A stretch of 64,000 bases of DNA from an uncultured Clostridia bacterium (GTDB lineage: Bacteria > Bacillota > Clostridia > CAKSNL01 > HGM11501). How positions within the stretch are numbered: position 1 is the stretch's first letter; every line of letters starts with the position of its first letter. The stretch covers positions 206,153 to 270,152 of the forward strand of contig CAKSNL010000003.1 in the NCBI GenBank assembly GCA_934476235.1. The letters run 5' to 3'. The translations under genes and the position numbers were made by a program. The notes under the pieces were generated by a model. The model saw only the letters and a list, made by a program, of their open reading frames with translations, was not told the origin of the DNA and did no database searches. Positions 47,628 to 63,365 of this stretch are shown here, piece by piece.

Positions 47628-47952
47628 AATCCATCATCCTCAAAATCAAAGCTGCTATATATGATTAATTTTACCACACAATAAGTATTTTGTCAAATAA
47701 TAACCCCTTATAAAAAGTTCACATTTTATTTTTATTTTAGATATAGTTAATTCATAATCATAATGTATAATAAAATTGTAAAGCAAAAGAAATACGCTTT
47801 ACAAAGTTTTTCATTTTCCTCTCCTATATCTCATTTGGATGCAAACGCACAGTTTTCCCCAACTGTGCGTTTTGCTTTTTAAATTCTTTTTGTTGCTTTT
47901 TATGCTATTATATGCTAAAATAGACAAAGTGTTATTGATACGGAGAGTAATT

Positions 47953-48861
47953 ATGAGAAGCTTTACGTTAAATGCCGATGATGCAGGTCAGAGGCTTGAC
48001 AAATATATACTGAAAATAACCGAAATGCCGCGCTCGCTTATATATAAGTATATCAGAACGGGTCATATCAAGGTAAACAAAAAGAAAAAGGATGCCGGCT
48101 ATTTTCTCTCGGAGGGCGATGTTGTCGCTCTTTTTATTGACGACAGCCTTTTCAAGTCGGAAAAAAGCGCTTTTTTGACCCATCCTCTCGACATAGTTTA
48201 TGAGTCTGACGATATTATAGCCGTAAACAAGCCGTCCGGAATGAAGAGCCAGCCGGACCGCCCGGGCGACGGCGCGCTTTCCGAATATATAAAGGGGTAT
48301 CTTTTTTCAAAGGGCGAATACCTCCCCGAAGGCGGACATTCCTTCTCGCCCGCTCTTTGCAACAGGCTTGACGTTAATACCTCGGGCATTGTGCTTGCGG
48401 CAAAAAATGCCGAAAGCTTAAGAATATTAAACGAAAAGATAAAAAACAAGGAAGTTGAAAAATACTACCATTGCATAGTGCGCGGAACGCCTCCGGAAAA
48501 AAGCGGAATCCTTGAAGGGTATATATTAAAAGACCGCGCAAAAAACAAGTCGGTTATAAAAAAAGAAGAGTTCCCCGATTCGAAATATGTCAAGACCGGG
48601 TACCGCGTTATCCGCTCATCAGGCGGGCGCTCGCTTATCGATATAACGCTCTATACGGGAAGGTCACACCAGATACGCGCGCACATGGCGTCTGTCGGCT
48701 GCCCGATAGAGGGCGACTTTAAGTACGGCGGCGGAGAAGGAACGCAAAAGCTTTGCGCATATAAGCTGGTTTTTAATTTTTCGGACAGCGGAGGAAAGCT
48801 CTCGTATCTTAAAGGAAAAACGCTTGAGATAACTCCTTATTTTGACAAAGAGGTGCAGTAA
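47953..48861 (+). CDS. RluA-family pseudouridine synthase.
   Basis: S4-like N-terminus. Catalytic HRLD-like region and GRSHQIRAHMA. Start chosen at MRSFTLN. The longer ORF annotation from 47839 is rejected. Confidence 0.7.
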   Translation: MRSFTLNADDAGQRLDKYILKITEMPRSLIYKYIRTGHIKVNKKKKDAGYFLSEGDVVALFIDDSLFKSEKSAFLTHPLDIVYESDDIIAVNKPSGMKSQPDRPGDGALSEYIKGYLFSKGEYLPEGGHSFSPALCNRLDVNTSGIVLAAKNAESLRILNEKIKNKEVEKYYHCIVRGTPPEKSGILEGYILKDRAKNKSVIKKEEFPDSKYVKTGYRVIRSSGGRSLIDITLYTGRSHQIRAHMASVGCPIEGDFKYGGGEGTQKLCAYKLVFNFSDSGGKLSYLKGKTLEITPYFDKEVQ

Positions 48862-48862
48862 A

Positions 48863-49723
48863 ATGAATTTGGCGAACGAATGGAAAGATTATGAGATATT
48901 AGACCTTTACAGCGGCGAAAAGGTCGAACGGTGGGGCGATATCATGCTCATCCGTCCCGATCCTCAGGTTATATGGCCCAAAACAGATAATACCGAGTGG
49001 GAGAAAAAGGCATATGCCAGATATATAAGGTCTTCCTCCGGAGGCGGAAGCTGGGAATATTACAAAAAGCTACCCGAAAAATGGCGGATAAATTATAAAG
49101 ACCTTTCTTTCTATATAAAGCCGATGGGCTTTAAGCATACCGGGCTTTTCCCTGAGCAGGCGGTTAACTGGGACTATATGATAGATAAAATTAAAAAAGC
49201 CGGACGCCCCATACGGGTGCTTAACCTTTTCGCCTACACCGGCGGAGCGACGGTTGCATGTGTATCGGCGGGCGCTTTTGTCTGCCATGTTGACAGTTCA
49301 AAGGGAATGACCGCATGGGCGAAGGAAAACATCGCTTTATCGGGACTTTCGGATAAGCCGATGCGCTTTATAGTGGACGATGTGAGAAAATTCGTCGAGC
49401 GCGAAATAAGGCGCGGAAACACTTATGACGCGATAGTCATGGATCCCCCCTCATACGGGCGCGGCGCGGGAAAAGAAGTGTGGAGCCTGGAAACCGACCT
49501 TTATGACCTTGTGGCTCTTTGCTCAGGCGTCCTTTCCGACAATCCTTTATTTTTCCTTATCAATTCATACACCACGGGGCTTTCCCCCACGGTGCTTGAA
49601 AACATACTCGGCATAAACCTTTCGCGTTTTAAGGGGAAAATAACCTCCGGCGAAGTCGGACTTCCTGTCACGGGCTCCGATCTCATACTCCCTTGCGGAA
49701 TATTCGGAAGATGGGAAGCATAA
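48863..49723 (+). CDS. Class I SAM-dependent (rRNA) methyltransferase, RlmI/YwbD-like.
   Basis: VLNLFAYTGG motif I and DPPSYGRG motif IV. Confidence 0.55.
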   Translation: MNLANEWKDYEILDLYSGEKVERWGDIMLIRPDPQVIWPKTDNTEWEKKAYARYIRSSSGGGSWEYYKKLPEKWRINYKDLSFYIKPMGFKHTGLFPEQAVNWDYMIDKIKKAGRPIRVLNLFAYTGGATVACVSAGAFVCHVDSSKGMTAWAKENIALSGLSDKPMRFIVDDVRKFVEREIRRGNTYDAIVMDPPSYGRGAGKEVWSLETDLYDLVALCSGVLSDNPLFFLINSYTTGLSPTVLENILGINLSRFKGKITSGEVGLPVTGSDLILPCGIFGRWEA

Positions 49724-52982: not shown

Positions 52983-53058
52983 TGGTGGAGATATGGGGAT
53001 TCGAACCCCAGACCTGTTACATGCGAAGCAACCGCTCTCCCAACTGAGCTATACCCCC
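52983..53058 (-). tRNA. tRNA-Ala (anticodon CGC).
   Basis: Reverse complement: GGGGGTATAGCTCAGTTGGGAGAGC...TTCGCAT loop...GGTTCGAATCCCC...CCACCA. The G3:U70 Ala identity pair is present. Confidence 0.8.
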
Positions 53059-53065
53059 GAAACGT

Positions 53066-53154
53066 TGGTGCCCGAGACCGGAATCGAACCGGTACGACTT
53101 TTAACGGTCGCAGGATTTTAAGTCCTGTGCGTCTGCCAGTTCCGCCACTCGGGC
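53066..53154 (-). tRNA. tRNA-Leu (anticodon TAA), long variable arm.
   Basis: Reverse complement: GCCCGAGTGGCGGAA...anticodon loop CTTAAAA...long extra arm...GGTTCGATTCCGG...CACCA. 89 nt. Confidence 0.75.
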
Positions 53155-53245
53155 TAACAACAAGATATAGGATATCACATTTTTTCCTTTTTGTCAATAG
53201 TTTAGTGCGAAAAAACTGCCCCTTTGCTTATCAAGGGGCGGTTTT

Positions 53246-54187
53246 TTATTCGAAATCTTTTATATCAAAATGCCACGGCTCGCGTTTTCTGAACGGAGTC
53301 TTGAATTTCTTTTTAAGAACGCCCTTTTCTTCAAGATGAACATAACATGCAATATCGCACGCCCTTCCGCATATCGAGCACTGATAAGCATGCTGCGCGG
53401 GCGGATAAAAATAAATTTTATCAAGAATTTTCCGCGCCGTTTCCGGAGTCACTTTGGCTTCACCCGCAATAATTTTTATTCTGTCGTCAAAATCACTAAA
53501 AGCGTCCGGAGGCATGAACGGATTTTTCGTGCCGTTAGCACCGTTATAATAAACGGCGCACTGCCACGGTTCAATTCCGCCGTCAGGTTTTACCGCGCCT
53601 CCCGGGCATGCTTTTTTGCACTCCATGCAGTTATCGCAAAGGTGCTTTTCGTAAATCTCCGTACCTTCAATCTCCGCGTCGGTCAAAACAAAGCAATATC
53701 TTATCATGGGACCGAAATCGTCATTTAACAGTGCTCCGTCAAAGCCTTTTTCTCCGAGTCCGCACATCACGGCGACATTTAAAAAGTCAAGCGTTTCCTC
53801 GCTTTTTCTGTTTCTGTATACTGCATCATATGCGACCTCGGGATTGGTCGAATTTTCTTCCTTCATTATCTGCTGGTGCTTTCTCTGCGGAAGCGCCGTG
53901 AATCCCTCGCGCTCTATGACGCCGGACACCTTAAGGCTTGCCATCGGCATGACCGTTTCCTCCATGTTTTCAACGCCCATTGTGGTGTACTGATAATATG
54001 TTGTGCCTTCCTCGATACCTCTGTATACGCCGCGAAGGACTCTGAATCCGAGACCGATGACTGTTTTAACCTCCGGCATAAGGCGAAAGACCGCGTCGCC
54101 CTTACCGAATCTCTCCGCCGGAGCAAAACCGACAACGTCCGCCCCGTTTTCCTTTGCCGTATTAATTATAATATCTTTAAGCTCCAT
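53246..54187 (-). CDS. QueG/reductive-dehalogenase-like 4Fe-4S protein, paralog 1.
   Basis: N-terminal ADVVGFAPAERF...VIGLGF resembles the QueG N-domain. CDNCMECKKACPGG (C-x2-C-x2-C-x3-C-P) and CSICGRACDIAC cluster motifs. Start placed at MELKDII, which has a GGGGG RBS. Confidence 0.5.
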   Translation of the reverse strand: MELKDIIINTAKENGADVVGFAPAERFGKGDAVFRLMPEVKTVIGLGFRVLRGVYRGIEEGTTYYQYTTMGVENMEETVMPMASLKVSGVIEREGFTALPQRKHQQIMKEENSTNPEVAYDAVYRNRKSEETLDFLNVAVMCGLGEKGFDGALLNDDFGPMIRYCFVLTDAEIEGTEIYEKHLCDNCMECKKACPGGAVKPDGGIEPWQCAVYYNGANGTKNPFMPPDAFSDFDDRIKIIAGEAKVTPETARKILDKIYFYPPAQHAYQCSICGRACDIACYVHLEEKGVLKKKFKTPFRKREPWHFDIKDFE

Positions 54188-54188
54188 A

Positions 54189-55076
54189 TCAAAGTTCCCC
54201 CACAATGTGCTCATAGCATGCTATGTCGCACTTTTTCATGCAAAGGCACGGTGAATAGCCCCACTGCGTGTTCGGCAAAAAGTTCATTTTCTTATATAGC
54301 TTTCTCGCGCTTTCCGAATCGAACCGCTTTTCTCCGTTTATAATAGCCTCACGCTCGGGATCGCCGCGCAAAAATTCGTCCGTCATAAAAGGATTTGACT
54401 TATGCGCGCCCTTATAGTAAACGCTGCACTGCCATGTATCCAAGCCATGTTCACTTATCGCGTGACCCGGACACGCCGAGATGCACTTTCCGCACCCGTC
54501 GCACACATCCTCATAGGGCTCGTCAAATTCCAGCGGTGCGTCGGTAATAATAAAACAGTACCTTATAAAAGGACCGTATTTTCTATTCAGTATCTTTCCG
54601 GAAAGCCCCATATCTCCGATTCCGCACGCTTTCGCCGCCTTGCCGAAATTTATTATCACGTCTGGAGCCGGCTTTCCCTCCTCAACGGGATCTGAAATAA
54701 GCTCGTATGTATCTATTACCTCGGGGTTCGTTTCCTTGTCGCCTTTGATTCTTAAGTTGGGTATGACCTTCTGAAGACAGGCGTCATAGCCCTCGTCCTC
54801 AATCATTGCTCCCATTTTAAGAAGGAATATTTCCGCCATTTCCTCATCGATATATTTGACTCCCAAGGTAGTGTACGAATAGTGCTGCACACCGCGCGCC
54901 ATCGCTTTATAAAGTCCTTTGGGAACCGCGAATCCGAATCCTATTATGCTTTTCGCCTTCGTCAGTATCATGTAAGGGTCTCTACCCGGATCTTCCTCGG
55001 CATACACTCTGCCGACTCCGCACAAAGACGCTCCGAGCTCATATGCGCGTTTTTTTATCATTTCGGTTGTAAGCAT
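54189..55076 (-). CDS. QueG/reductive-dehalogenase-like 4Fe-4S protein, paralog 2.
   Basis: Same architecture, with motifs CDGCGKCISACPGH and CLCMKKCDIAC. Confidence 0.5.
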   Translation of the reverse strand: MLTTEMIKKRAYELGASLCGVGRVYAEEDPGRDPYMILTKAKSIIGFGFAVPKGLYKAMARGVQHYSYTTLGVKYIDEEMAEIFLLKMGAMIEDEGYDACLQKVIPNLRIKGDKETNPEVIDTYELISDPVEEGKPAPDVIINFGKAAKACGIGDMGLSGKILNRKYGPFIRYCFIITDAPLEFDEPYEDVCDGCGKCISACPGHAISEHGLDTWQCSVYYKGAHKSNPFMTDEFLRGDPEREAIINGEKRFDSESARKLYKKMNFLPNTQWGYSPCLCMKKCDIACYEHIVGEL

Positions 55077-55092
55077 ACCATGACCTCCTTAT

Positions 55093-55434
55093 CTATATAA
55101 AACGCCTTTCTGTATTTTCTTTGCTTGTGTTGCTGTTTTCAATCACAAGAACCGTCGCGTCACGCGACATTGTAGTATGATGCCACACGCCCCTTTTTAT
55201 GTTGTATACTTTGTTCTTTTCCATAGGCACCGTTTCTTCTTCGGTATATAAGACCGCCTCACCCGAAAGTAAAACAAACACCTCGTCCGTTTCAGTGTGC
55301 CGTTCAAGCCTGTCGGCTTTTGAAAAACGCTCGGACCATCTCATCAGCCCGATTTTCCACCCCTCAAAAACCTTGACCGCCTTAAAATCCTCGCCATTAT
55401 AATCAATAACCTCTATCATCTGTCCAGCCTCCAA
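55093..55434 (-). CDS. Cupin-domain protein (113 aa).
   Basis: Small beta-barrel cupin-like sequence (G.W.H..E.DE.FVLL.GEA). Confidence 0.5.
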   Translation of the reverse strand: MEAGQMIEVIDYNGEDFKAVKVFEGWKIGLMRWSERFSKADRLERHTETDEVFVLLSGEAVLYTEEETVPMEKNKVYNIKRGVWHHTTMSRDATVLVIENSNTSKENTERRFI

Positions 55435-56495
55435 GCTTTTTTGGTGCGAAGCGGCTCCTTAAATCTGCCTTCCATGCAGCCGCCTTTTTTCTCAAGCATC
55501 GAAACGCACGCTCTTATGCAGCCTCCGCACTTTGCCATATTGTATCCGACCCAGCTCGGGAAATACTTCTGAAGAGCGGTATAGACCTTCATTATTTCTT
55601 TTTCGTCGGCAATATCGGTCTTGCCCTCCATGAGGTCAAGCGCTCCGTTCTCGTTTTTGTCCCAGACCTCTTTCGGAACAAACGGATTGTAATACCTTCC
55701 CGCATGAGTATAGAAAGCGTAGCAGCGCCACATATCGATGTCGCCCCACTCGCAGAGCTTTCCGTCAAGGTCAACGCTTATTGTTTTTCCGGAATTGATA
55801 GCGGGGATACAGCTTCCGGGACATTCCCTCACGCACGCTCCGCATTTGCGGCACAAGGGCTTGCCCGAGTACATCTCGTCATATTCAAGCTCTGCGTCCG
55901 TAAATAAAAACGCCACTCTCTGAAGCGGTCCGAATTCGGGAGTCAAAAGCATCTTGCTCCACCCTATCTCGCCGAGCCCGCACGCAACCGCCGCAAGCCT
56001 GAACTGAAATTGAAGGTCGGGAGGCACGGACTCCTCTCTTGCCGCACGCGTGAACTGCACACTTCTGTGGTGCGCGGTCGAGCTTTTCGCGTTTTCGTTA
56101 ACCTCTATCTGCTCCTCGGGCGAAAGAGTGTTTCCGGGGCTTCCGTCCATGTCCGAAACGCAGCCTCTTGCGCCGGTGTTTCTGTAAACGAACGCTTCGT
56201 AGCCTTCATCCTCAATCACCTTTCCGACATGGTAAAGCACCGCCGGAGCATATATTTCGTTAATTCCGCCGTATGCCATCGAAGGGTACTGGTTAAACTG
56301 CGTGCCCTCCTCAATGCCTCTTTGCACTCCGCGCGGAATTCTGAAAACAAAGCCGATGCAGCTTTTCGCCTCCGGAAAAAGAAACCGGGGATTCATTTCA
56401 TCAGGTGCGCCCGAAAAGCGGGACATCGGAGCAATCCCGCATTTGTCCGCGCCGGCGGCAAGCGCCGCTTCTTTAATCATCTGACTTGTCAGCAT
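55416..56495 (-). CDS. QueG/reductive-dehalogenase-like 4Fe-4S protein, paralog 3.
   Basis: Motifs CRKCGACVRECPGSC and CGGCIRAC. The N-terminus matches paralog 2. Confidence 0.5.
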   Translation of the reverse strand: MLTSQMIKEAALAAGADKCGIAPMSRFSGAPDEMNPRFLFPEAKSCIGFVFRIPRGVQRGIEEGTQFNQYPSMAYGGINEIYAPAVLYHVGKVIEDEGYEAFVYRNTGARGCVSDMDGSPGNTLSPEEQIEVNENAKSSTAHHRSVQFTRAAREESVPPDLQFQFRLAAVACGLGEIGWSKMLLTPEFGPLQRVAFLFTDAELEYDEMYSGKPLCRKCGACVRECPGSCIPAINSGKTISVDLDGKLCEWGDIDMWRCYAFYTHAGRYYNPFVPKEVWDKNENGALDLMEGKTDIADEKEIMKVYTALQKYFPSWVGYNMAKCGGCIRACVSMLEKKGGCMEGRFKEPLRTKKAWRLDR

Positions 56496-57520
56496 AATAT
56501 TTTCTTCCCTTCACTTAAATTTGTGAGTGCAGCTTTGAGCTCATCGGCGCATATTGTACATTCGCTGCATTTTTTGCTGCAAAAAAGGCGCCTGTCCGTC
56601 AGCTTTCTGTTATCTATTACATAAGGATAGAGCCTTCCGAAGTGATTCGGCTCCAAAAGCTCCAATACGTTTCCGCTGTGCCTTCCGGATATGTAGCTTT
56701 TAAGCACCATGCGCGCCATATCCGTCGCCCTCGTAGCAAGCTTCATGGCGTTAAAATAAGGTTCGTATAAATGCACTTCTTCAGGTCTTATAAAGCTTGT
56801 GTCCTTTAAGAGCGATATGTAATTTTCTTTGTTTTTAAGGTACTCGTGGCATATCCCTTCAAAGGTATAGCCGTTTTTCATTTTTGAAATCTCTTTTTCA
56901 TGGGCGACCAGATTGTCGTGAAACGTGTGCGCGGAGCAATCGGACAGGCAGCCGCTGTTTGCCAGAATATAAAGCTCTTTCCCGTTTTCGCCGCACCATT
57001 TTTTCAATTCATTAATCTTTTCAAAATCCCGGTTGTATTCGCGTTTTAAATAATACCCGTCAAAATACTTTCCGACATAGTCCATGCCGCGGCACGAGCC
57101 TATCCCCATATTGACCGATGCGCGGGTCTTGATATCACGGAAATTGTCCTTGATAAATTTTGCGATAAGGGGCGATGTTGTCGTGACCGATGCTAAATTG
57201 AATCTGCATTTAATATAATCTGTGCAGTCGCCTATCTCATTGTAAAACGATCCACAAAGGCTTTCCCTGCCGTAGCAATTCCCGTTAAAAAGTAGGTTGA
57301 ATTTAATTTCCTCTTCATTGAGGCGGGCAAGGTCTTTGTTCATTTTTTCATATGCTTCCCACTCGGTCATTTCTCCGCTTTCGGTCTGCGGCGCCCTTCC
57401 GTTCGGGAACGAGCCCCATGAAAAATATACTTCTTCAATGCGCTCTTTGTTCTTTATTATATCCTCCAAAAAGCCCGTATCGCAAGAGCAATTGTATCCC
57501 ACGGAAAATTTCAAACGCAA
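56489..57520 (-). CDS. Cys-rich protein, tentatively peptidase-U32 family-like (RlhA/TrhP/UbiU-type).
   Basis: N-terminal L.F..G.....FLEDIIKN...EEVYFSWG resembles the U32 N-terminus (..AGADAVYxGG). Multiple conserved-looking Cys clusters. The family assignment is tentative. Confidence 0.35.
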   Translation of the reverse strand: MRLKFSVGYNCSCDTGFLEDIIKNKERIEEVYFSWGSFPNGRAPQTESGEMTEWEAYEKMNKDLARLNEEEIKFNLLFNGNCYGRESLCGSFYNEIGDCTDYIKCRFNLASVTTTSPLIAKFIKDNFRDIKTRASVNMGIGSCRGMDYVGKYFDGYYLKREYNRDFEKINELKKWCGENGKELYILANSGCLSDCSAHTFHDNLVAHEKEISKMKNGYTFEGICHEYLKNKENYISLLKDTSFIRPEEVHLYEPYFNAMKLATRATDMARMVLKSYISGRHSGNVLELLEPNHFGRLYPYVIDNRKLTDRRLFCSKKCSECTICADELKAALTNLSEGKKILC

Positions 57521-57611
57521 CCCCTCCTTTTTTGCATAATACCATATAATAATTTTATCACATAAAATATCTTACTTAAATGCACGAAACAAATATAAAG
57601 ATGTAAAAAAC

Positions 57612-57650
57612 AAACAAAAAAATAATCGGCTGAAAGCCGATTATTTTTCA
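57612..57650. terminator. Bidirectional terminator after copZ.
   Basis: A-run, then ataatcggct-gaa-agccgattat, then ttttt. Confidence 0.7.
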
Positions 57651-57905
57651 CTTTCCGAATGCTCCGAAAAACCCCTTTTTCTCGTACGGAGAAGAGGTTA
57701 TCTCCCCGACCGTATATCCCGTGGGTTTTAAGACCTCTCTTATCTTTTCGGAATCAAGAGCGTCCTCCGAGATAATTTCAGTCTCGCCCTTGGAGTGTGA
57801 AGACGAGACTTTTTTTACGTTAAAAGCCGCCCTTATTGCGTCATTTACATGCGTTTCGCACATCTGGCACATCATGCCGTCAATTTTAACTGTTGTTTTG
57901 AACAT
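57648..57905 (-). CDS. copZ: Copper chaperone CopZ-like HMA-domain protein.
   Basis: Metal-binding GMMCQMC. 85 aa. Confidence 0.7.
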   Translation of the reverse strand: MFKTTVKIDGMMCQMCETHVNDAIRAAFNVKKVSSSHSKGETEIISEDALDSEKIREVLKPTGYTVGEITSSPYEKKGFFGAFGK

Positions 57906-57910
57906 AACAA

Positions 57911-60379
57911 TTACTCCTTTATCTTTATTACTTTATATCCGGCTGCCTCAACGGCAGTTTTCAATGCATCTTTATTAAGGTTCTCGGCTCCCAAAATCTC
58001 CGCCTTGCCCGATTTGCTGCTTACCGATACGTCCGACACTCCGCTGACCGCTAAAAGTGCCTCTCTCACCCGCTTTTCGCAATGCGAACACATCATGCCG
58101 CGTATCACGATAACGGTTTTGTCTGCGCTTTTTCCTTTCTCAGATTTGAAAAAGTTAAGTCTTAAGGCGTTTGACACCACAGATACGCTCGATAAGCTCA
58201 TTGCCGCCGCTCCGAACATCGGATTTAACGTCAGCCCGAGCGAAACAAAGCATCCCGCGGCAAGCGGTATTCCGATTACGTTATAAATAAACGCCCAGAA
58301 GAGATTTTCGTGAATGTTTTTAATTGTCGCCTTGGAAAGCCTTATGGCAGTCGGAACATCTGTCAGCCTGCTCTTCATCAAAACAATGTCCGCCGCATCT
58401 ATGGCAATGTCGGTTCCGGCGCCGATTGCAATGCCGATATCCGCGCTCGTTAAGGGCGGCGCGTCATTTATGCCGTCGCCGACCATGGCAACGCGCCCTT
58501 CCTTTGAGAGATTTTCGACGGCTTGCTTTTTCCCGTCCGGCTTAACACCGGCAATCACCTCGTCAACCCCGACTTTTTTGGCAATCGCGCGTGCGGTCCT
58601 CTCGTTATCCCCGGTCAGCATGACAACGCGGATTCCCATTGAATGAAGCTCTTCTATCGCCTTTTTGCTTTCGGGCTTTACCTCATCCGCAACGGCGATG
58701 ACGCCCAAGAGCTTACCGTCTGCCGCAAAAAGAAGCGGTGTTTTTCCTTCAAACGAGAGCTCGTCTGCCTTTTTTTCAATTTCGGGTGAAATCTCAGTTT
58801 CCGACCTTAAAAAGTCAAGGCTTCCGCCGATTACTTTCTTTCCGTCAATTATTCCGGTAAGCCCGTTTCCGGGAAGCGCAGTAAAATCCGATACTTCTTT
58901 TTCTTCAATGCTTCTTTCTTCTCCGAATCTTGTTACAGCTCCGGCAAGCGGGTGCTCGCTCCTTTTCTCAAGCGAAACCGAAAGCGTTAAAAGCTCGTCC
59001 TCCGCCGCCTCATCAGCCGCGAAAACATCGGTAACCTCCGGTCTGCCCTCCGTGATGGTTCCCGTTTTATCAAGCGCGGCAATCTTTATTTTTCCCGCAT
59101 TTTCAAGAACCTCCGCAGTTTTAAAAAGTATTCCGTTTTTCGCCCCGACTCCGGAGCCGACCATTATTGCAACGGGAGTCGCAAGTCCCAAAGCGCACGG
59201 GCAGCTTATAACCAAAACGGAAATGGCGCGTGCCAGAGCGTACGCAAACGTCTGTCCGATTATGAGCCAGACAATAAGTGTGATGACCGACAGTGTGATA
59301 ACCGTCGGAACGAACACGCCCGATACCTTGTCCGCTATCTTTGCAATAGGAGCCTTCGATGCCGCGGCGTCGCTTACCATTTTGATTATTTTTGCCAAAG
59401 CCGTGTCCCCGCCGACATTTTGAGCTTCGCACTTTAAAAACCCGGACATGTTGACCGTACCTGCCGAAACAATGTCTCCCGCTTTCTTGTCCGCCGGAAT
59501 ACTCTCTCCTGTAAGCGCAGATTCGTTGACCGCGCTTACCCCTTCCGTAACCGTTCCGTCAACGGGAATGTTTTCGCCCGGACGAACAACAAATATGTCG
59601 CCCTTTATAACCTCCGAAACAGGGATTTTTTCCTCCTCGCCGTTACGCACAACGGTTGCCTTGTCCGGAGCAAGCTTCATAAGGCTTTTGAGCGCGTCCG
59701 TCGTTTTCCCTTTTGAGCGCGCTTCAAGCATTTTGCCGAGCGTTATAAGGGTCAATATCATTGCGGCGGATTCAAAATAGAACTCGTCCATATACCGCAT
59801 TACCGCTTCATGATCGCCGTTTGCCTGCGATCCGGTCATCGCGAAAAGAACATATACGCTCCAGATATATGACGCTCCGGAGCCGAGCGCGACGAGCGAA
59901 TCCATGTTGGGCGATCTTTTTATGAGCGCCTTTGTTCCGCTTATAAAAAACTTTTGGTTTATCACCATTATCACTGTCGTCAACAAAAGCTGCAAAAGTC
60001 CCATAGCGACGTGATTGTCCGAAAGCCACGATGGCAGCGGAAAGCCCCACATCATGTGCCCCATGGAAAAATACATCAATATTACAAGAAAAAATAAAGA
60101 AGCAATAAGTCTCTTTTTAAGAACCGGAGTCTCTGTATCGGGAAGCTCTTTTTCGCTTTTTTTCTCTTCCACGCCTTTAACGCTCGCCCCGTAACCGGCT
60201 TTAACGACCGCGCCGATTATTTCATCGTCCGACGCCGTGCCGGAAACCGTCATACTGTTCGTAAGAAGGTTGACGTTACATTCCGTTACGTTATTAAGCG
60301 CAGACACCGCTTTTTCAACTCTTGCCGAGCATGAGGCGCAGCTCATTCCCGTCACATTGTACTGACGCATAAAAATCAC
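57911..60379 (-). CDS. copA: Cu+-exporting P1B-type ATPase CopA with N-terminal and C-terminal HMA domains.
   Basis: GMSCASC (N-terminal HMA). CPC membrane motif (SCPCALG). DKTGT. GDGINDAP. C-terminal GMMCSHC HMA domain. Confidence 0.9.
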   Translation of the reverse strand: MIFMRQYNVTGMSCASCSARVEKAVSALNNVTECNVNLLTNSMTVSGTASDDEIIGAVVKAGYGASVKGVEEKKSEKELPDTETPVLKKRLIASLFFLVILMYFSMGHMMWGFPLPSWLSDNHVAMGLLQLLLTTVIMVINQKFFISGTKALIKRSPNMDSLVALGSGASYIWSVYVLFAMTGSQANGDHEAVMRYMDEFYFESAAMILTLITLGKMLEARSKGKTTDALKSLMKLAPDKATVVRNGEEEKIPVSEVIKGDIFVVRPGENIPVDGTVTEGVSAVNESALTGESIPADKKAGDIVSAGTVNMSGFLKCEAQNVGGDTALAKIIKMVSDAAASKAPIAKIADKVSGVFVPTVITLSVITLIVWLIIGQTFAYALARAISVLVISCPCALGLATPVAIMVGSGVGAKNGILFKTAEVLENAGKIKIAALDKTGTITEGRPEVTDVFAADEAAEDELLTLSVSLEKRSEHPLAGAVTRFGEERSIEEKEVSDFTALPGNGLTGIIDGKKVIGGSLDFLRSETEISPEIEKKADELSFEGKTPLLFAADGKLLGVIAVADEVKPESKKAIEELHSMGIRVVMLTGDNERTARAIAKKVGVDEVIAGVKPDGKKQAVENLSKEGRVAMVGDGINDAPPLTSADIGIAIGAGTDIAIDAADIVLMKSRLTDVPTAIRLSKATIKNIHENLFWAFIYNVIGIPLAAGCFVSLGLTLNPMFGAAAMSLSSVSVVSNALRLNFFKSEKGKSADKTVIVIRGMMCSHCEKRVREALLAVSGVSDVSVSSKSGKAEILGAENLNKDALKTAVEAAGYKVIKIKE

Positions 60380-60414: not shown

Positions 60415-60723
60415 TTACTTCATAAGCTTCTGAATCGTTAAAACAAGCTCGTCAATCACCTCATCGTCGCCGTTTCTTATATCACGCGCAACACATCCTT
60501 TAATGTGGCTTTTAAGCATTTCCTTGTTAAACGCATTCATCGCCGCGACCACCGCGGAGGACTGAACCAATATGTCGTTGCAATACGCATCCGACTCTAT
60601 CATGGATTGTATTCCGCGTATCTGCCCTTCAATTCTTTTAAGCCTGTTCATCATTGATTTTTTCTGTTCATCGCTTCGCATAGTATGCTTTTCGCTGCAA
60701 TGGCAGCATTTTTCACGTTCCAT
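60415..60723 (-). CDS. csoR: CsoR-family copper-sensing transcriptional repressor.
   Basis: 102-aa helical protein with conserved Cys/His/Cys positions. Immediately upstream of copA. Confidence 0.7.
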   Translation of the reverse strand: MEREKCCHCSEKHTMRSDEQKKSMMNRLKRIEGQIRGIQSMIESDAYCNDILVQSSAVVAAMNAFNKEMLKSHIKGCVARDIRNGDDEVIDELVLTIQKLMK

Positions 60724-60782: not shown

Positions 60783-63365
60783 TTATACCGTGCAGCAAAG
60801 CTCGCCATCCTTAACGTCAACCGTTATGGTGCTTCCGGTATCAAAGTCGCCTTTTAATATTGCACGGGCAATTAAGGTTTCCATACTGCTCTGCAAGTAA
60901 CGGCGGAGCGGTCTTGCACCGTAAAGCGGGTCATAGCCTCTGTCGATTATGAGTTCTTTTGCCTTTTCGGTCACATTAAGCTTTAACGACTTATCCGCAA
61001 GACGGCTTCTCAAGCCCTCAATCATGATGTCGATAATTCCCGTGAGATTTTCCTTTGTCAGCGGTCGGAACATAACCGTCTCATCAAGTCTGTTTAAAAA
61101 CTCCGGACGGAAGAACCTTTTAAGCTCGCTCATAACGGCGCTTCTTGCCTCATCGGTTATATTGCCGTCTTTATCGATTCCGTCCGAAAGATACTGGCTT
61201 CCGAGGTTGGAGGTTAAAATGATTATCGTGTTTTTAAAGTCGACCGTTCTTCCCTGGGAATCGGTTATCCGTCCGTCATCCAATATCTGTAGCAGAATGT
61301 TAAATACATCCGGATGCGCCTTTTCAACCTCGTCGAAAAGCACAACGCTGTAGGGCTTGCGCCTTACCGCTTCCGTAAGCTGACCGCCCTCGTCATATCC
61401 CACATATCCGGGAGGTGCGCCGATAAGGCGCGATACGGAGTATTTCTCCATGTACTCGGTCATATCGATACGCACGATGTTGTGCTCATCGTCAAACAGG
61501 CACTCCGCAAGACTTTTTGCAAGCTCTGTTTTTCCGACACCGGTAGGACCCAAGAAAAGGAAGGAACCGATCGGACGGTTGGGGTCGGAAATTCCGGCAC
61601 GGGATCTTAATATTGCCTCGGTCACTTTCTTGACCGCTTCATCCTGACCGACAACGCGCTTATGAATGTACTCGTCCAGATGAAGTATCTTCTCGCGCTC
61701 GCCCTCCATGAGCTTGGAAACGGGAATTCCGGTCCATTTTGCAACAATTCCGGATATATCCTCATCCGTGACCGTGTCATGGATGAGCGTGCCCTGCTTC
61801 TTCGTTTCGGAGGCTTTCTCGGCATCGCGGAGCTTTGCTTCGAGTGCGGGAAGGTCTGAATACTTAAGCTTTGCCGCTTTCTCGTACTCATAATGAAGCT
61901 GGGCGCTTTCAATGTCAGCATGCATTTTTTCTATCTCGGATTTAAGCTTTTTAACATTGTCAACACTCGACTTTTCCTCTTCCCAGCGCGACTTCATTTC
62001 GTTAAATTTATCCTTCAATTCATAAAGCTCCTCGCGAAGCTTGCCGAGTCTGTCACGGCTTAATTCGTCCTCTTCCTTCTTTAACGCCATTTCCTCAATT
62101 TCAAGCTGCATTATCTTTCTTCTGACGTCGTCCATCTCGGAGGGCATGGAATCAATCTCGGTTCTTATAAGAGCGCACGCTTCATCGACAAGGTCGATAG
62201 CTTTATCGGGCAGGAATCTGTCCGTTATATATCTGTTTGAAAGCGTTGCCGCGGCTACCAGTGCGCTGTCGTGAATTCTGACGCCGTGGAACACCTCATA
62301 ACGCTCCTTAAGACCTCTTAAGATAGAAATCGTATCCTCAACGGTGGGCTCGTCAACCTGTACGGGCTGGAAACGCCTTTCAAGAGCGGGGTCCTTTTCG
62401 ATGTACTTTCTGTATTCGTCAAGTGTTGTTGCACCGATGCAGTGAAGCTCACCGCGCGCAAGCATGGGCTTTAAGAGGTTTCCGGCGTCCATGCTGCCTT
62501 CCGTTTTTCCCGCGCCGACGATGGTGTGAAGCTCATCAATGAAAAGAAGAATCTTGCCTTCCGCGCGCTTTATTTCCGAAAGTACCGCTTTAAGCCTTTC
62601 CTCAAATTCACCTCTGTATTTTGCCCCGGCAATGAGCGCACCCATATCAAGCGAGAAGATTGTTTTATCTTTAAGGCTTTCGGGCACATCTCCCCTTACG
62701 ATACGCTGAGCAAGTCCCTCGGCTATCGCAGTCTTGCCGACGCCGGGCTCACCGATAAGTACGGGATTGTTTTTCGTTTTACGCGAAAGGATCCTTATCA
62801 CGTTTCTTATTTCCGTGTCTCGCCCGATCACGGGGTCAAGCTCGTTATTTTTTGCTCTTTCCACAAGGTCGGTTCCGTATTTTTTAAGCGCGTCATACGT
62901 GCTCTCCGGATTGTCGCCGGTAACGGGCGCGGTCTTTACCTTTGAGAGCTCCGACGAGAATTTCTGCTTTGTTACTCCGTGGTTGTCAAATATCTTTTTT
63001 ATCGCCTGCGTTGCCGCTGAAAATATTCCTATCATTAAGTGCTCAACGGAAACGTATTCGTCCCCCATTGATTTTGCCGCCGCTTCCGCCGCCTTTATCA
63101 CCCTGTCGGTCTCGGACGAAAGATATGCTCTCCCCTCCATTGTGCCGACCTTCGGCAAAAGTCCTATAGCGGTATCAAGCTCCGACAGCATCGCGTCTGT
63201 ATCTGCCCCCATTTTCTTTAAGAGCGACGGTATAAGCCCGCCGTCCTGGTCGATAAGAGCATACAAAAGGTGCTCCGGTGCAATATAGTTATTTTTGTTT
63301 TCCTCAGCCATAGACTGAGCTGTGTTAAGCGCTTCGGCGCTTTTCTGTGTGTAGTTAGTGTTCAT
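60783..63365 (-). CDS. clpB: ATP-dependent chaperone ClpB.
   Basis: Two AAA modules ([16 protein letters not shown]). Middle coiled-coil. 860 aa. Confidence 0.9.

Follow-up and report, generated by a model that had tools for sequence, protein, structure and literature searches.

Gene content and organization of the locus

The locus considered here lies in a 64,000 nt stretch of DNA (the window) from an uncultured Clostridia bacterium (GenBank assembly GCA_934476235.1, contig CAKSNL010000003.1, positions 206,153 to 270,152 of the forward strand). Calling of open reading frames (ORFs) in the window reveals five genes arranged head to tail on the minus strand, from 57520 to 53246, in the order A-Q1-cupin-Q2-Q3. 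Gene A (56489-57520, 343 aa) encodes a Cys-rich protein predicted to form a TIM barrel, and is followed by Q1 (55416-56495, 359 aa), the 5' end of which overlaps the 3' end of A by 7 nt, a Cupin_2 gene (55093-55434, 113 aa), Q2 (54189-55076, 295 aa) and Q3 (53246-54214, 322 aa). The three Q genes encode paralogous iron-sulphur (Fe-S) proteins that resemble epoxyqueuosine reductase (QueG) and the reductive dehalogenases (RdhA). A preliminary description of this region had recognized three such paralogues with an interleaved cupin gene, and this is confirmed by the ORFs and by comparisons with NCBIfam, the PDB and, using Foldseek, known structures. It had also placed the 343 aa protein at the end of the operon, whereas transcription runs from A towards Q3, so that A comes first.

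A Hadza gut metagenome contig (L092) is 97% identical to the window locus, with identical synteny, and this contig, together with the family consensus sequences, suggests shorter starts for A, the cupin gene and Q3. The likelier start of A, from comparison with the family consensus, is a TTG at 57514, giving the N-terminal sequence MKFSVGY as in its homologues. For the cupin gene the likelier start is the ATG at 55419 (108 aa), which overlaps the stop codon of Q1 as ATGA, and for Q3 it is the ATG at 54187 (313 aa), 1 nt past the Q2 stop; the L092 orthologues are likewise 108 and 313 aa in length. With these starts, the spacings between successive genes are -7, -4, +16 and +1 nt.

Upstream, the boundary of the operon is marked by a terminator-like hairpin belonging to a copZ-like gene (57617..57649, minus strand; 15-bp stem and T-run). 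This is followed by an AT-rich intergenic leader (57521..57616, minus strand), with a ribosome-binding site, AAGGAGGGG, immediately 5' of gene A; a consensus scan of the leader gave no strong sigma-70 match. A second terminator-like hairpin (53218..53239, minus strand; 7-bp GC-rich stem and T-run) lies directly after Q3 and would end the operon. Because of the short spacings and overlaps, and the terminators before and after, the five genes are predicted to form one tightly coupled transcription unit. The gene overlaps also suggest translational coupling.

Relationship of Q1-Q3 and A to known families

In pairwise comparison Q1, Q2 and Q3 are 32-35% identical, and their alignment contains 59 invariant columns. 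Each combines a CxxCxxCxxxCP motif with a remote cysteine in a W-x-C context and with three further Cys in a C-terminal motif. The eight invariant Cys per paralogue are enough ligands for two [4Fe-4S] clusters, and the cluster-ligating cysteines predicted in the preliminary description are thus present on alignment (C215/218/221/225, C258 and C323/326/330 in Q1; C192/195/198/202, C217 and C279/283/287 in Q2; a full set of eight in Q3). The two motifs as originally given fare differently, in that CxxCxxCxxxCP is found in all three proteins while C-x2-C-x3-C-x3-C is exact in Q3 alone, the second motif reading C-x-C-x3-C-x3-C in Q2 and C-x2-C-x3-C in Q1. Q1 also carries a conserved insert at about residues 100-165.

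The only curated models touched by Q1-Q3 are the NCBIfam models for reductive dehalogenase (RDH, TIGR02486) and QueG (TIGR00276), with E values of 1e-7 to 1e-12. Membership of a single well-characterized housekeeping family had been raised as a possibility to be checked with hidden Markov models (HMMs), and the scores are far below both cutoffs: 36.7, 46.4 and 31.0 bits for Q1, Q2 and Q3 against an RDH cutoff of 160, and 28.3, 47.2 and 28.6 bits against a QueG cutoff of 200, with only a core matched, which is about 60-80 residues in the case of QueG. Q2 is the paralogue nearest to QueG, and as a single sequence matches the QueG structure 5D08 (E 4.6e-10). When a profile of the Q family was compared with the PDB, the RdhA structure 8Q4H was matched at E 1e-14 and QueG at 1.4e-12, and the N-terminal strands of the family gave additional weak QueG matches in the correct order. 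The AlphaFold model of Q2 has a predicted local distance difference test (pLDDT) score of 77, with low confidence at residues 61-80 that left no assignable structural counterpart of the conserved QueG Tyr. All 46 of its significant Foldseek matches (E below 1e-6) are to QueG or RdhA, and these are followed by the B12 chaperones CblD and CblC. The N-terminal resemblance to QueG and RdhA noted earlier is thus supported by weak QueG alignment as well as by Foldseek. On the strength of these sequence, profile and structural matches, Q1-Q3 are predicted to adopt the class III cobalamin-enzyme fold, and are about equally distant from QueG and RdhA.

QueG (5D08, 5D6S) is like the Q proteins in combining an N-terminal cofactor domain with a two-[4Fe-4S] ferredoxin domain in a soluble, cytoplasmic protein, and it is in the GLGxxG...TPExGP...CxxCxxCxxxCP region that the strongest sequence match occurs. 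QueG carries out the two-electron reductive removal of the epoxide oxygen from a carbocyclic (cyclopentane) diol (PMC5175355), using a catalytic D-Y-H motif and an Asp134-type loop (PMC4646009, PMC5175355), and has a HEAT-like domain after the ferredoxin domain (PMC5175355). In contrast, the Q proteins have no recognizable Asp134 loop, and a motif scan of the three window proteins and 189 orthologues found no DYH tripeptide. They also lack the C-terminal HEAT-like tRNA domain, since Q1-Q3 end at the second Fe-S motif, in agreement with the preliminary description. As in RdhA, an insert of about 60 residues interrupts the second cluster motif of the Q proteins, and QueG is encoded by a single housekeeping gene rather than by three co-conserved paralogues in a regulated catabolic operon. 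A bona fide QueG gene was sought in the related loci and none was found. Assignment of Q1-Q3 as QueG was rejected on the grounds of the scores below the 200-bit cutoff and the missing DYH motif and HEAT domain.

The QueG and RdhA families share two-electron reductive chemistry at low potential. RdhA proteins (PceA, NpRdhA and the membrane RDH complex 8Q4H) have the same fold and redox-chain layout as the Q proteins; 8Q4H is the best match of the Q family profile, and the remote first Cys of the second Q cluster resembles the RdhA arrangement. However, Q1-Q3 have no RR in the first 30 residues, as would be expected of a twin-arginine translocation (TAT) signal, and no hydrophobic segment; no gene for a small membrane protein, such as an RdhB-like anchor, is conserved in the operon, and there is no fused NAD(P)H reductase module. 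The genes also lie in a sugar-gene context, unlike those of RdhA. With scores below the 160-bit cutoff and without the TAT signal, RdhB partner and reductase fusion, assignment as RdhA was likewise rejected. Because of the absence of an RR signal and of hydrophobic segments, all of the operon proteins are predicted to be soluble and cytoplasmic.

Protein A contains 16 Cys in 343 aa, and the window protein has no Pfam, NCBIfam or PDB sequence match. The A family, with 3039 matches in a large sequence collection, has many invariant polar residues and five invariant Cys (C82, C176, C191, C195 and C224). Window A adds a C-terminal C314-x3-C318-x2-C321-x2-C324, and 35 of 81 family members have this CX3CX2CX2C motif. 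The AlphaFold (AF2) model of A is a (beta/alpha)8 barrel (pLDDT 87.9), for which the best Foldseek match is the U32 structure 5D88 (E 2.5e-9, probability 1.0, template modelling score 0.71 normalized to the target); the next-best barrel, at E 4.8e-5, is four orders of magnitude behind.

Homology is not established by comparisons at the sequence level, where two weak signals agree with the structural match. 5D88 is among just five PDB matches of the A family profile, at a non-significant E value of 1.2. Peptidase_U32 (PF01136) is the commonest Pfam match in the A family, but a weak one (2 of 41 members, best E 0.0097), and gives no match to window A even at E 10. Against a canonical U32 protein from one of the related loci (L075), hhalign was not significant. 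Pairwise alignment of A with U32 gave a z-score of -0.08 in a shuffle control, and hmmsearch with filters off was also not significant. Comparison by hhalign of an A profile (A2) with a 25-sequence U32 alignment gave a probability of 1.2% and E 0.044, although this is a weak test as both profiles are of low diversity. The U32 Fe-S oxidases (UbiU/UbiV, RlhA and TrhP) have a CX6CX15CX3C cluster motif (PMC11574389). The C176-x14-C191-x3-C195 of A recalls the last three Cys of this motif but has no Cys six residues upstream, and no significant alignment fixes the U32 register. A hand alignment of A (ELYILANSGC-LSDC-S) to the U32 signature had no statistical support and was not used. A also differs in lacking a DUF3656 or PF16325 C-terminal domain and in always being paired with three QueG/RdhA-like genes, although like the U32 proteins it is associated with anaerobes. 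We know of no U32 protein with such a pairing. Since the pairwise, HMM and profile-profile tests are non-significant, A is best described, from its model, as U32-like by fold and is not placed in the U32 family; the relationship suggested in the preliminary description holds for the fold and finds no significant counterpart in sequence or profile.

Single-chain relatives of the Q proteins were also found. Thirty of the top 150 relatives of Q1 are proteins of 725-836 aa, built of a Q-like module, a Q-like N-domain without Fe-S motifs and a further Q-like module (for example P0349, P0354, P0356, P0361 and P0372, from loci L094 and L095). They are 29-43% identical to Q1 over the aligned segments and have the same Fe-S motifs, and P0349 matches PF08331 (QueG_DUF1730) at 29.9 bits. 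They differ from Q1-Q3 in having all modules in one polypeptide, the middle one lacking Fe-S motifs. One example is encoded amid pectate-lyase-like, sulfatase, LacI and IclR genes. In the two contexts examined no A-like gene adjoins the single-chain proteins; a 524 aa gene beside a triple-Q fusion was considered as an A-like partner and rejected, as it is not A-like. Because of these three-module chains, together with the fixed stoichiometry and gene overlaps of Q1, Q2 and Q3, we infer that the three Q proteins assemble together.

Conservation and genomic context of the module

In a survey in which one genome per GTDB species was scanned, an A homologue is encoded in at least 566 species. The best 80 A-carrying genomes are those of gut and rumen Clostridia, among them Oscillospiraceae, Lachnospiraceae, Acutalibacteraceae and Ruminococcus, together with Lentisphaerae and Actinomycetota metagenome-assembled genomes (MAGs). 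Synteny was counted in 69 species-level loci with enough flanking sequence, drawn from the best A-carrying genomes, and A, Q1, Q2 and Q3 occur in the same order in 65 of these. Four proteins kept in the constant order A-Q1-Q2-Q3 make up the core of the system. In four loci (L035, L042, L048 and L070), Q1-Q2-Q3 is transcribed divergently from a unit consisting of an AraC gene and then A; here A is separable from the Q genes yet still adjacent.

The Q genes of related loci sort into three orthologous subfamilies, corresponding to Q1, Q2 and Q3. Since their order is conserved across families and phyla, these are, as judged from the sequences, ancient orthologous subfamilies, and the 'tandem triplication' of the preliminary description does not describe a local event. 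Q1 is the most conserved subunit: the median identity of the window protein to its orthologues is 86.5%, and Q1 is about 86% identical across bacterial families (L008-L087), compared with about 56% for A in the same loci; the corresponding values are 64-71% for Q2 and 64-66% for Q3. When 1.84 billion representatives were searched exhaustively, the search that also yielded the single-chain relatives, Q1 proteins of full length fell into one 50%-identity cluster, and the constraint on this subunit is unusually strong. Members of these families are annotated publicly as '4Fe-4S binding protein' or 'hypothetical protein'.

The cupin is an optional component, found in 27 of the 69 loci and lying between Q1 and Q2, as in the window, in 22. 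It matches Cupin_2 (PF07883) at 31.0 bits (gathering cutoff 27.2 bits, E 2e-7), with weak matches to WbuC and D-lyxose isomerase.

The tightest partner of the module is a divergent AraC-family regulator gene, which occurs at 67 of the 81 loci, 54 of them with the gene within 300 bp. Other genes are co-directional and lie within or abut the operon. These encode a GFO/IDH/MocA dehydrogenase (14 loci), weakly similar to inositol 2-dehydrogenase, levoglucosan dehydrogenase and glycoside 3-dehydrogenases; DUF5696 (13 loci), a putative glycosidase that resembles GH101; and a YgjV-type membrane protein (six loci). In a Lentisphaerae MAG the order is GFO-A-Q1-Q2-Q3; in a Lentisphaerae MAG, too, a group II intron D1-D4 element (107 bits; L033:9426-9566) lies directly downstream of Q3. 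At six loci a 331 aa radical SAM/SPASM gene is situated between A and Q1 (e.g. L088:11017-12012 and L024:3242-4237). Its product matches TIGR04317, 'tungsten cofactor oxidoreductase radical SAM maturase' (E 1.3e-72), and TIGR04311, 'putative metalloenzyme maturase' (E 7e-56), in both cases below the cutoff, which hints that the complex may need a matured metallocofactor. Two subtypes can be distinguished: A proteins with the C-terminal CX3CX2CX2C go with the radical SAM and YgjV genes, and those without it go with GFO and DUF5696.

Further neighbours include genes for CUT1 and CUT2 sugar ABC transporters, LacI and IclR regulators and a sugar-sensor-type two-component system, and enzymes of glycoside hydrolase (GH) families GH2, GH3, GH10, GH78 and GH130, as well as a sulfatase, an APH-type kinase with a nucleotidyltransferase, and a PF12831 flavoprotein. 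A link to carbohydrates is suggested because AraC and LacI regulators, GFO, DUF5696, glycosidases and sugar transporters adjoin the module. The preliminary description had suggested RNA bases or small aromatic or halogenated compounds as substrates. The conserved neighbours, which code for AraC/LacI regulators, glycosidases, dehydrogenases of sugars and sugar transporters, do not support these. In one MAG a fluoride riboswitch (46 bits; L016:5446-5518) was found 3.5 kb upstream of the module. It precedes Na+/H+ exchanger and hybrid-cluster (prismane) genes, and a link to the module was rejected as incidental.

In the window, genes for tRNA-Leu(UAA) and tRNA-Ala(CGC) (52983-53154, minus strand) lie between the operon terminator and an RpiR gene, and the nearest non-tRNA neighbours of the operon are this RpiR/SIS regulator and a GH127 gene; all four neighbours had been correctly identified in the preliminary description. 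The tRNA pair has its own promoter-like site (53197-53169) and terminator (52981-52954). Its association with the module is not conserved, as tRNA genes of any kind occur in only 4 of 42 other loci, in no case for tRNA-Ala or tRNA-Leu. Beyond GH127, at 47839-49723, are genes for an RluA-type pseudouridine synthase with an S4 domain and a Methyltrans_SAM methyltransferase, which represent ordinary RNA-modification housekeeping and are not linked to the module in a conserved way. Copper homeostasis genes immediately precede the operon, also on the minus strand, and encode a CsoR-type repressor (Trns_repr_metal, 60415-60723), a P-type ATPase of the CopA type that carries HMA domains (57911-60379) and a CopZ-like HMA protein (57648-57905), with ClpB at 60783-63365; the Hadza contig has the same order.

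Possible function of the module

We propose that the operon encodes a cytoplasmic, sugar-regulated multi-subunit Fe-S oxidoreductase of carbohydrate catabolism in anaerobic gut bacteria, a reading that we consider evenly balanced between being right and wrong. The pathway may be one of glycoside, sugar or possibly cyclitol catabolism. Our confidence in any specific chemistry is much lower than in this general statement. In outline, an AraC-type regulator, or possibly RpiR in the window, would turn the operon on. Glycosidases, among them DUF5696, GH3 and GH127, would release the substrate, which in many genomes the GFO/IDH/MocA dehydrogenase and a cupin isomerase would then prepare. A Q1-Q2-Q3 heterotrimer would carry low-potential electrons, for example from ferredoxin, via up to six [4Fe-4S] clusters, and at least Q1, which is extremely conserved, would retain a corrinoid-type active site. 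The barrel of A would bind a polar substrate derived from carbohydrate, adjacent to a Cys-ligated metal or Fe-S site of its own, and the complex could then carry out reductive C-O cleavage, in the form of deoxygenation, dehydroxylation or the opening of an epoxide or ether. Such cleavage is proposed because it is chemistry common to QueG and to Fe-S TIM-barrel enzymes.

Several observations weigh against this proposal. The heteromeric complex is deduced from synteny, gene overlaps and fusions, and corrinoid binding is unreadable from sequence, as class III enzymes carry no B12 sequence motif (PMC4646009). Neither the window nor eight related loci showed a cobalamin riboswitch or a B12 gene, and the window operon is without the AraC, GFO and DUF5696 partners seen elsewhere. 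The sugar-gene neighbourhood may be partly background, as gut Clostridia are rich in sugar genes and carbohydrate-active enzymes. In addition, the accessory genes form a mixed set (GFO as opposed to radical SAM, and a range of GH families) and do not indicate a single substrate.

A more specific possibility, which we put forward tentatively and consider unlikely, is that A-Q1-Q2-Q3 is a new type of corrinoid/Fe-S enzyme complex and represents a third functional branch of class III B12 enzymes, which in gut and rumen Clostridia would deoxygenate a polyhydroxylated ring reductively and in steps. The substrate, either a keto-sugar or a cyclitol of plant origin (such as an inositol, quinate or shikimate derivative), would be held by the U32-like barrel, with each Q paralogue contributing a site.

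It is a little less probable again that A is a U32-style O2-independent hydroxylase or oxidase, adding or taking away an oxygen function in the manner of UbiU/V, RlhA and TrhP, and that Q1-Q3 have lost corrinoid catalysis and act only as an electron chain leading to or from it. The best structural match of A is a U32 barrel, and A has conserved Cys. Fe-S clusters are required by the U32 oxidases, for which no redox partners are known (PMC11574389), and both clusters of class III enzymes are near the protein surface, so that interprotein electron transfer is possible (PMC4646009). However, A fails the Pfam U32 model and the profile-profile tests and does not have the canonical CX6CX15CX3C. In addition, it is Q1 and not A that is the most constrained subunit (86% compared with 56%), which would be unusual for a mere electron carrier, and the full N-terminal cofactor domain is kept in all three Q proteins.

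Organohalide respirers carry multiple rdhA paralogues, and Q1, Q2 and Q3 could in the same way be independent reductases acting on different substrates or at successive steps, with A as an unrelated enzyme of the pathway. Each paralogue keeps the eight cluster Cys and the whole fold, and QueG and NpRdhA work without paralogous partners, QueG being a monomer (PMC5175355). The strict 1:1:1 co-occurrence of the Q genes and their fixed order in 65 of 69 loci argue against such independence, as do the translational coupling suggested by the gene overlaps and the single chains that fuse three Q-like modules, the middle one without Fe-S motifs. We rate this somewhat below the reading in which A is the hydroxylase.

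A role in RNA modification, in which a divergent QueG-type and U32-type (RlhA/TrhP-like) system would act on tRNA or rRNA bases, is very improbable. Both parent families include RNA-modifying members (PMC5175355; PMC11574389) and the window operon adjoins two tRNA genes. However, the Q proteins have neither a HEAT-like tRNA-binding domain nor a DYH motif and reach only 28-47 bits against the 200-bit QueG cutoff, the tRNA adjacency is absent elsewhere, and AraC/LacI regulation with in-operon sugar genes fits catabolism rather than housekeeping. Nor do we expect Q1-Q3 to be respiratory or catabolic reductive dehalogenases acting on organohalides, an equally improbable reading for which the RDH model matches (E 1e-7 to 1e-12) and the structural matches to PceA, NpRdhA and the RDH complex might speak, but against which stand the scores of 31-46 bits where 160 are required, the lack of a TAT signal, an RdhB-like anchor gene and a fused reductase module, and hosts that are fermentative gut and rumen Clostridia with the module in a sugar-gene context.

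In literature searches no paper was found describing the family or the four-gene arrangement, nor was a curated Pfam or NCBIfam model or a solved structure found for either, in keeping with the earlier remark that the cluster belongs to no standard pathway that could be named. The folds are known; the four-gene arrangement appears to be new. To our knowledge, only two activities of class III B12 enzymes have been described, dehalogenation and epoxyqueuosine reduction. The authors of a QueG structure predicted that further families are hidden among ferredoxin-domain proteins (PMC4646009), and the present module is a concrete and widespread candidate for such a family, situated in regulated sugar-utilization loci of human-gut and rumen Clostridia. 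It also offers a testable partner set for a U32-like Fe-S barrel. If the module acts as a reductase of carbohydrate-derived substrates, it would represent a new reaction type in the anaerobic catabolism of glycans and plant metabolites and would add to the demand for corrinoids in gut ecology. If the substrate is a polyhydroxylated ring, it would provide an enzymatic basis for anaerobic dehydroxylation of sugars and cyclitols in the gut. The module is a strong candidate both for a third functional branch among the class III B12 enzymes and for a new anaerobic chemistry of carbohydrates in the gut.

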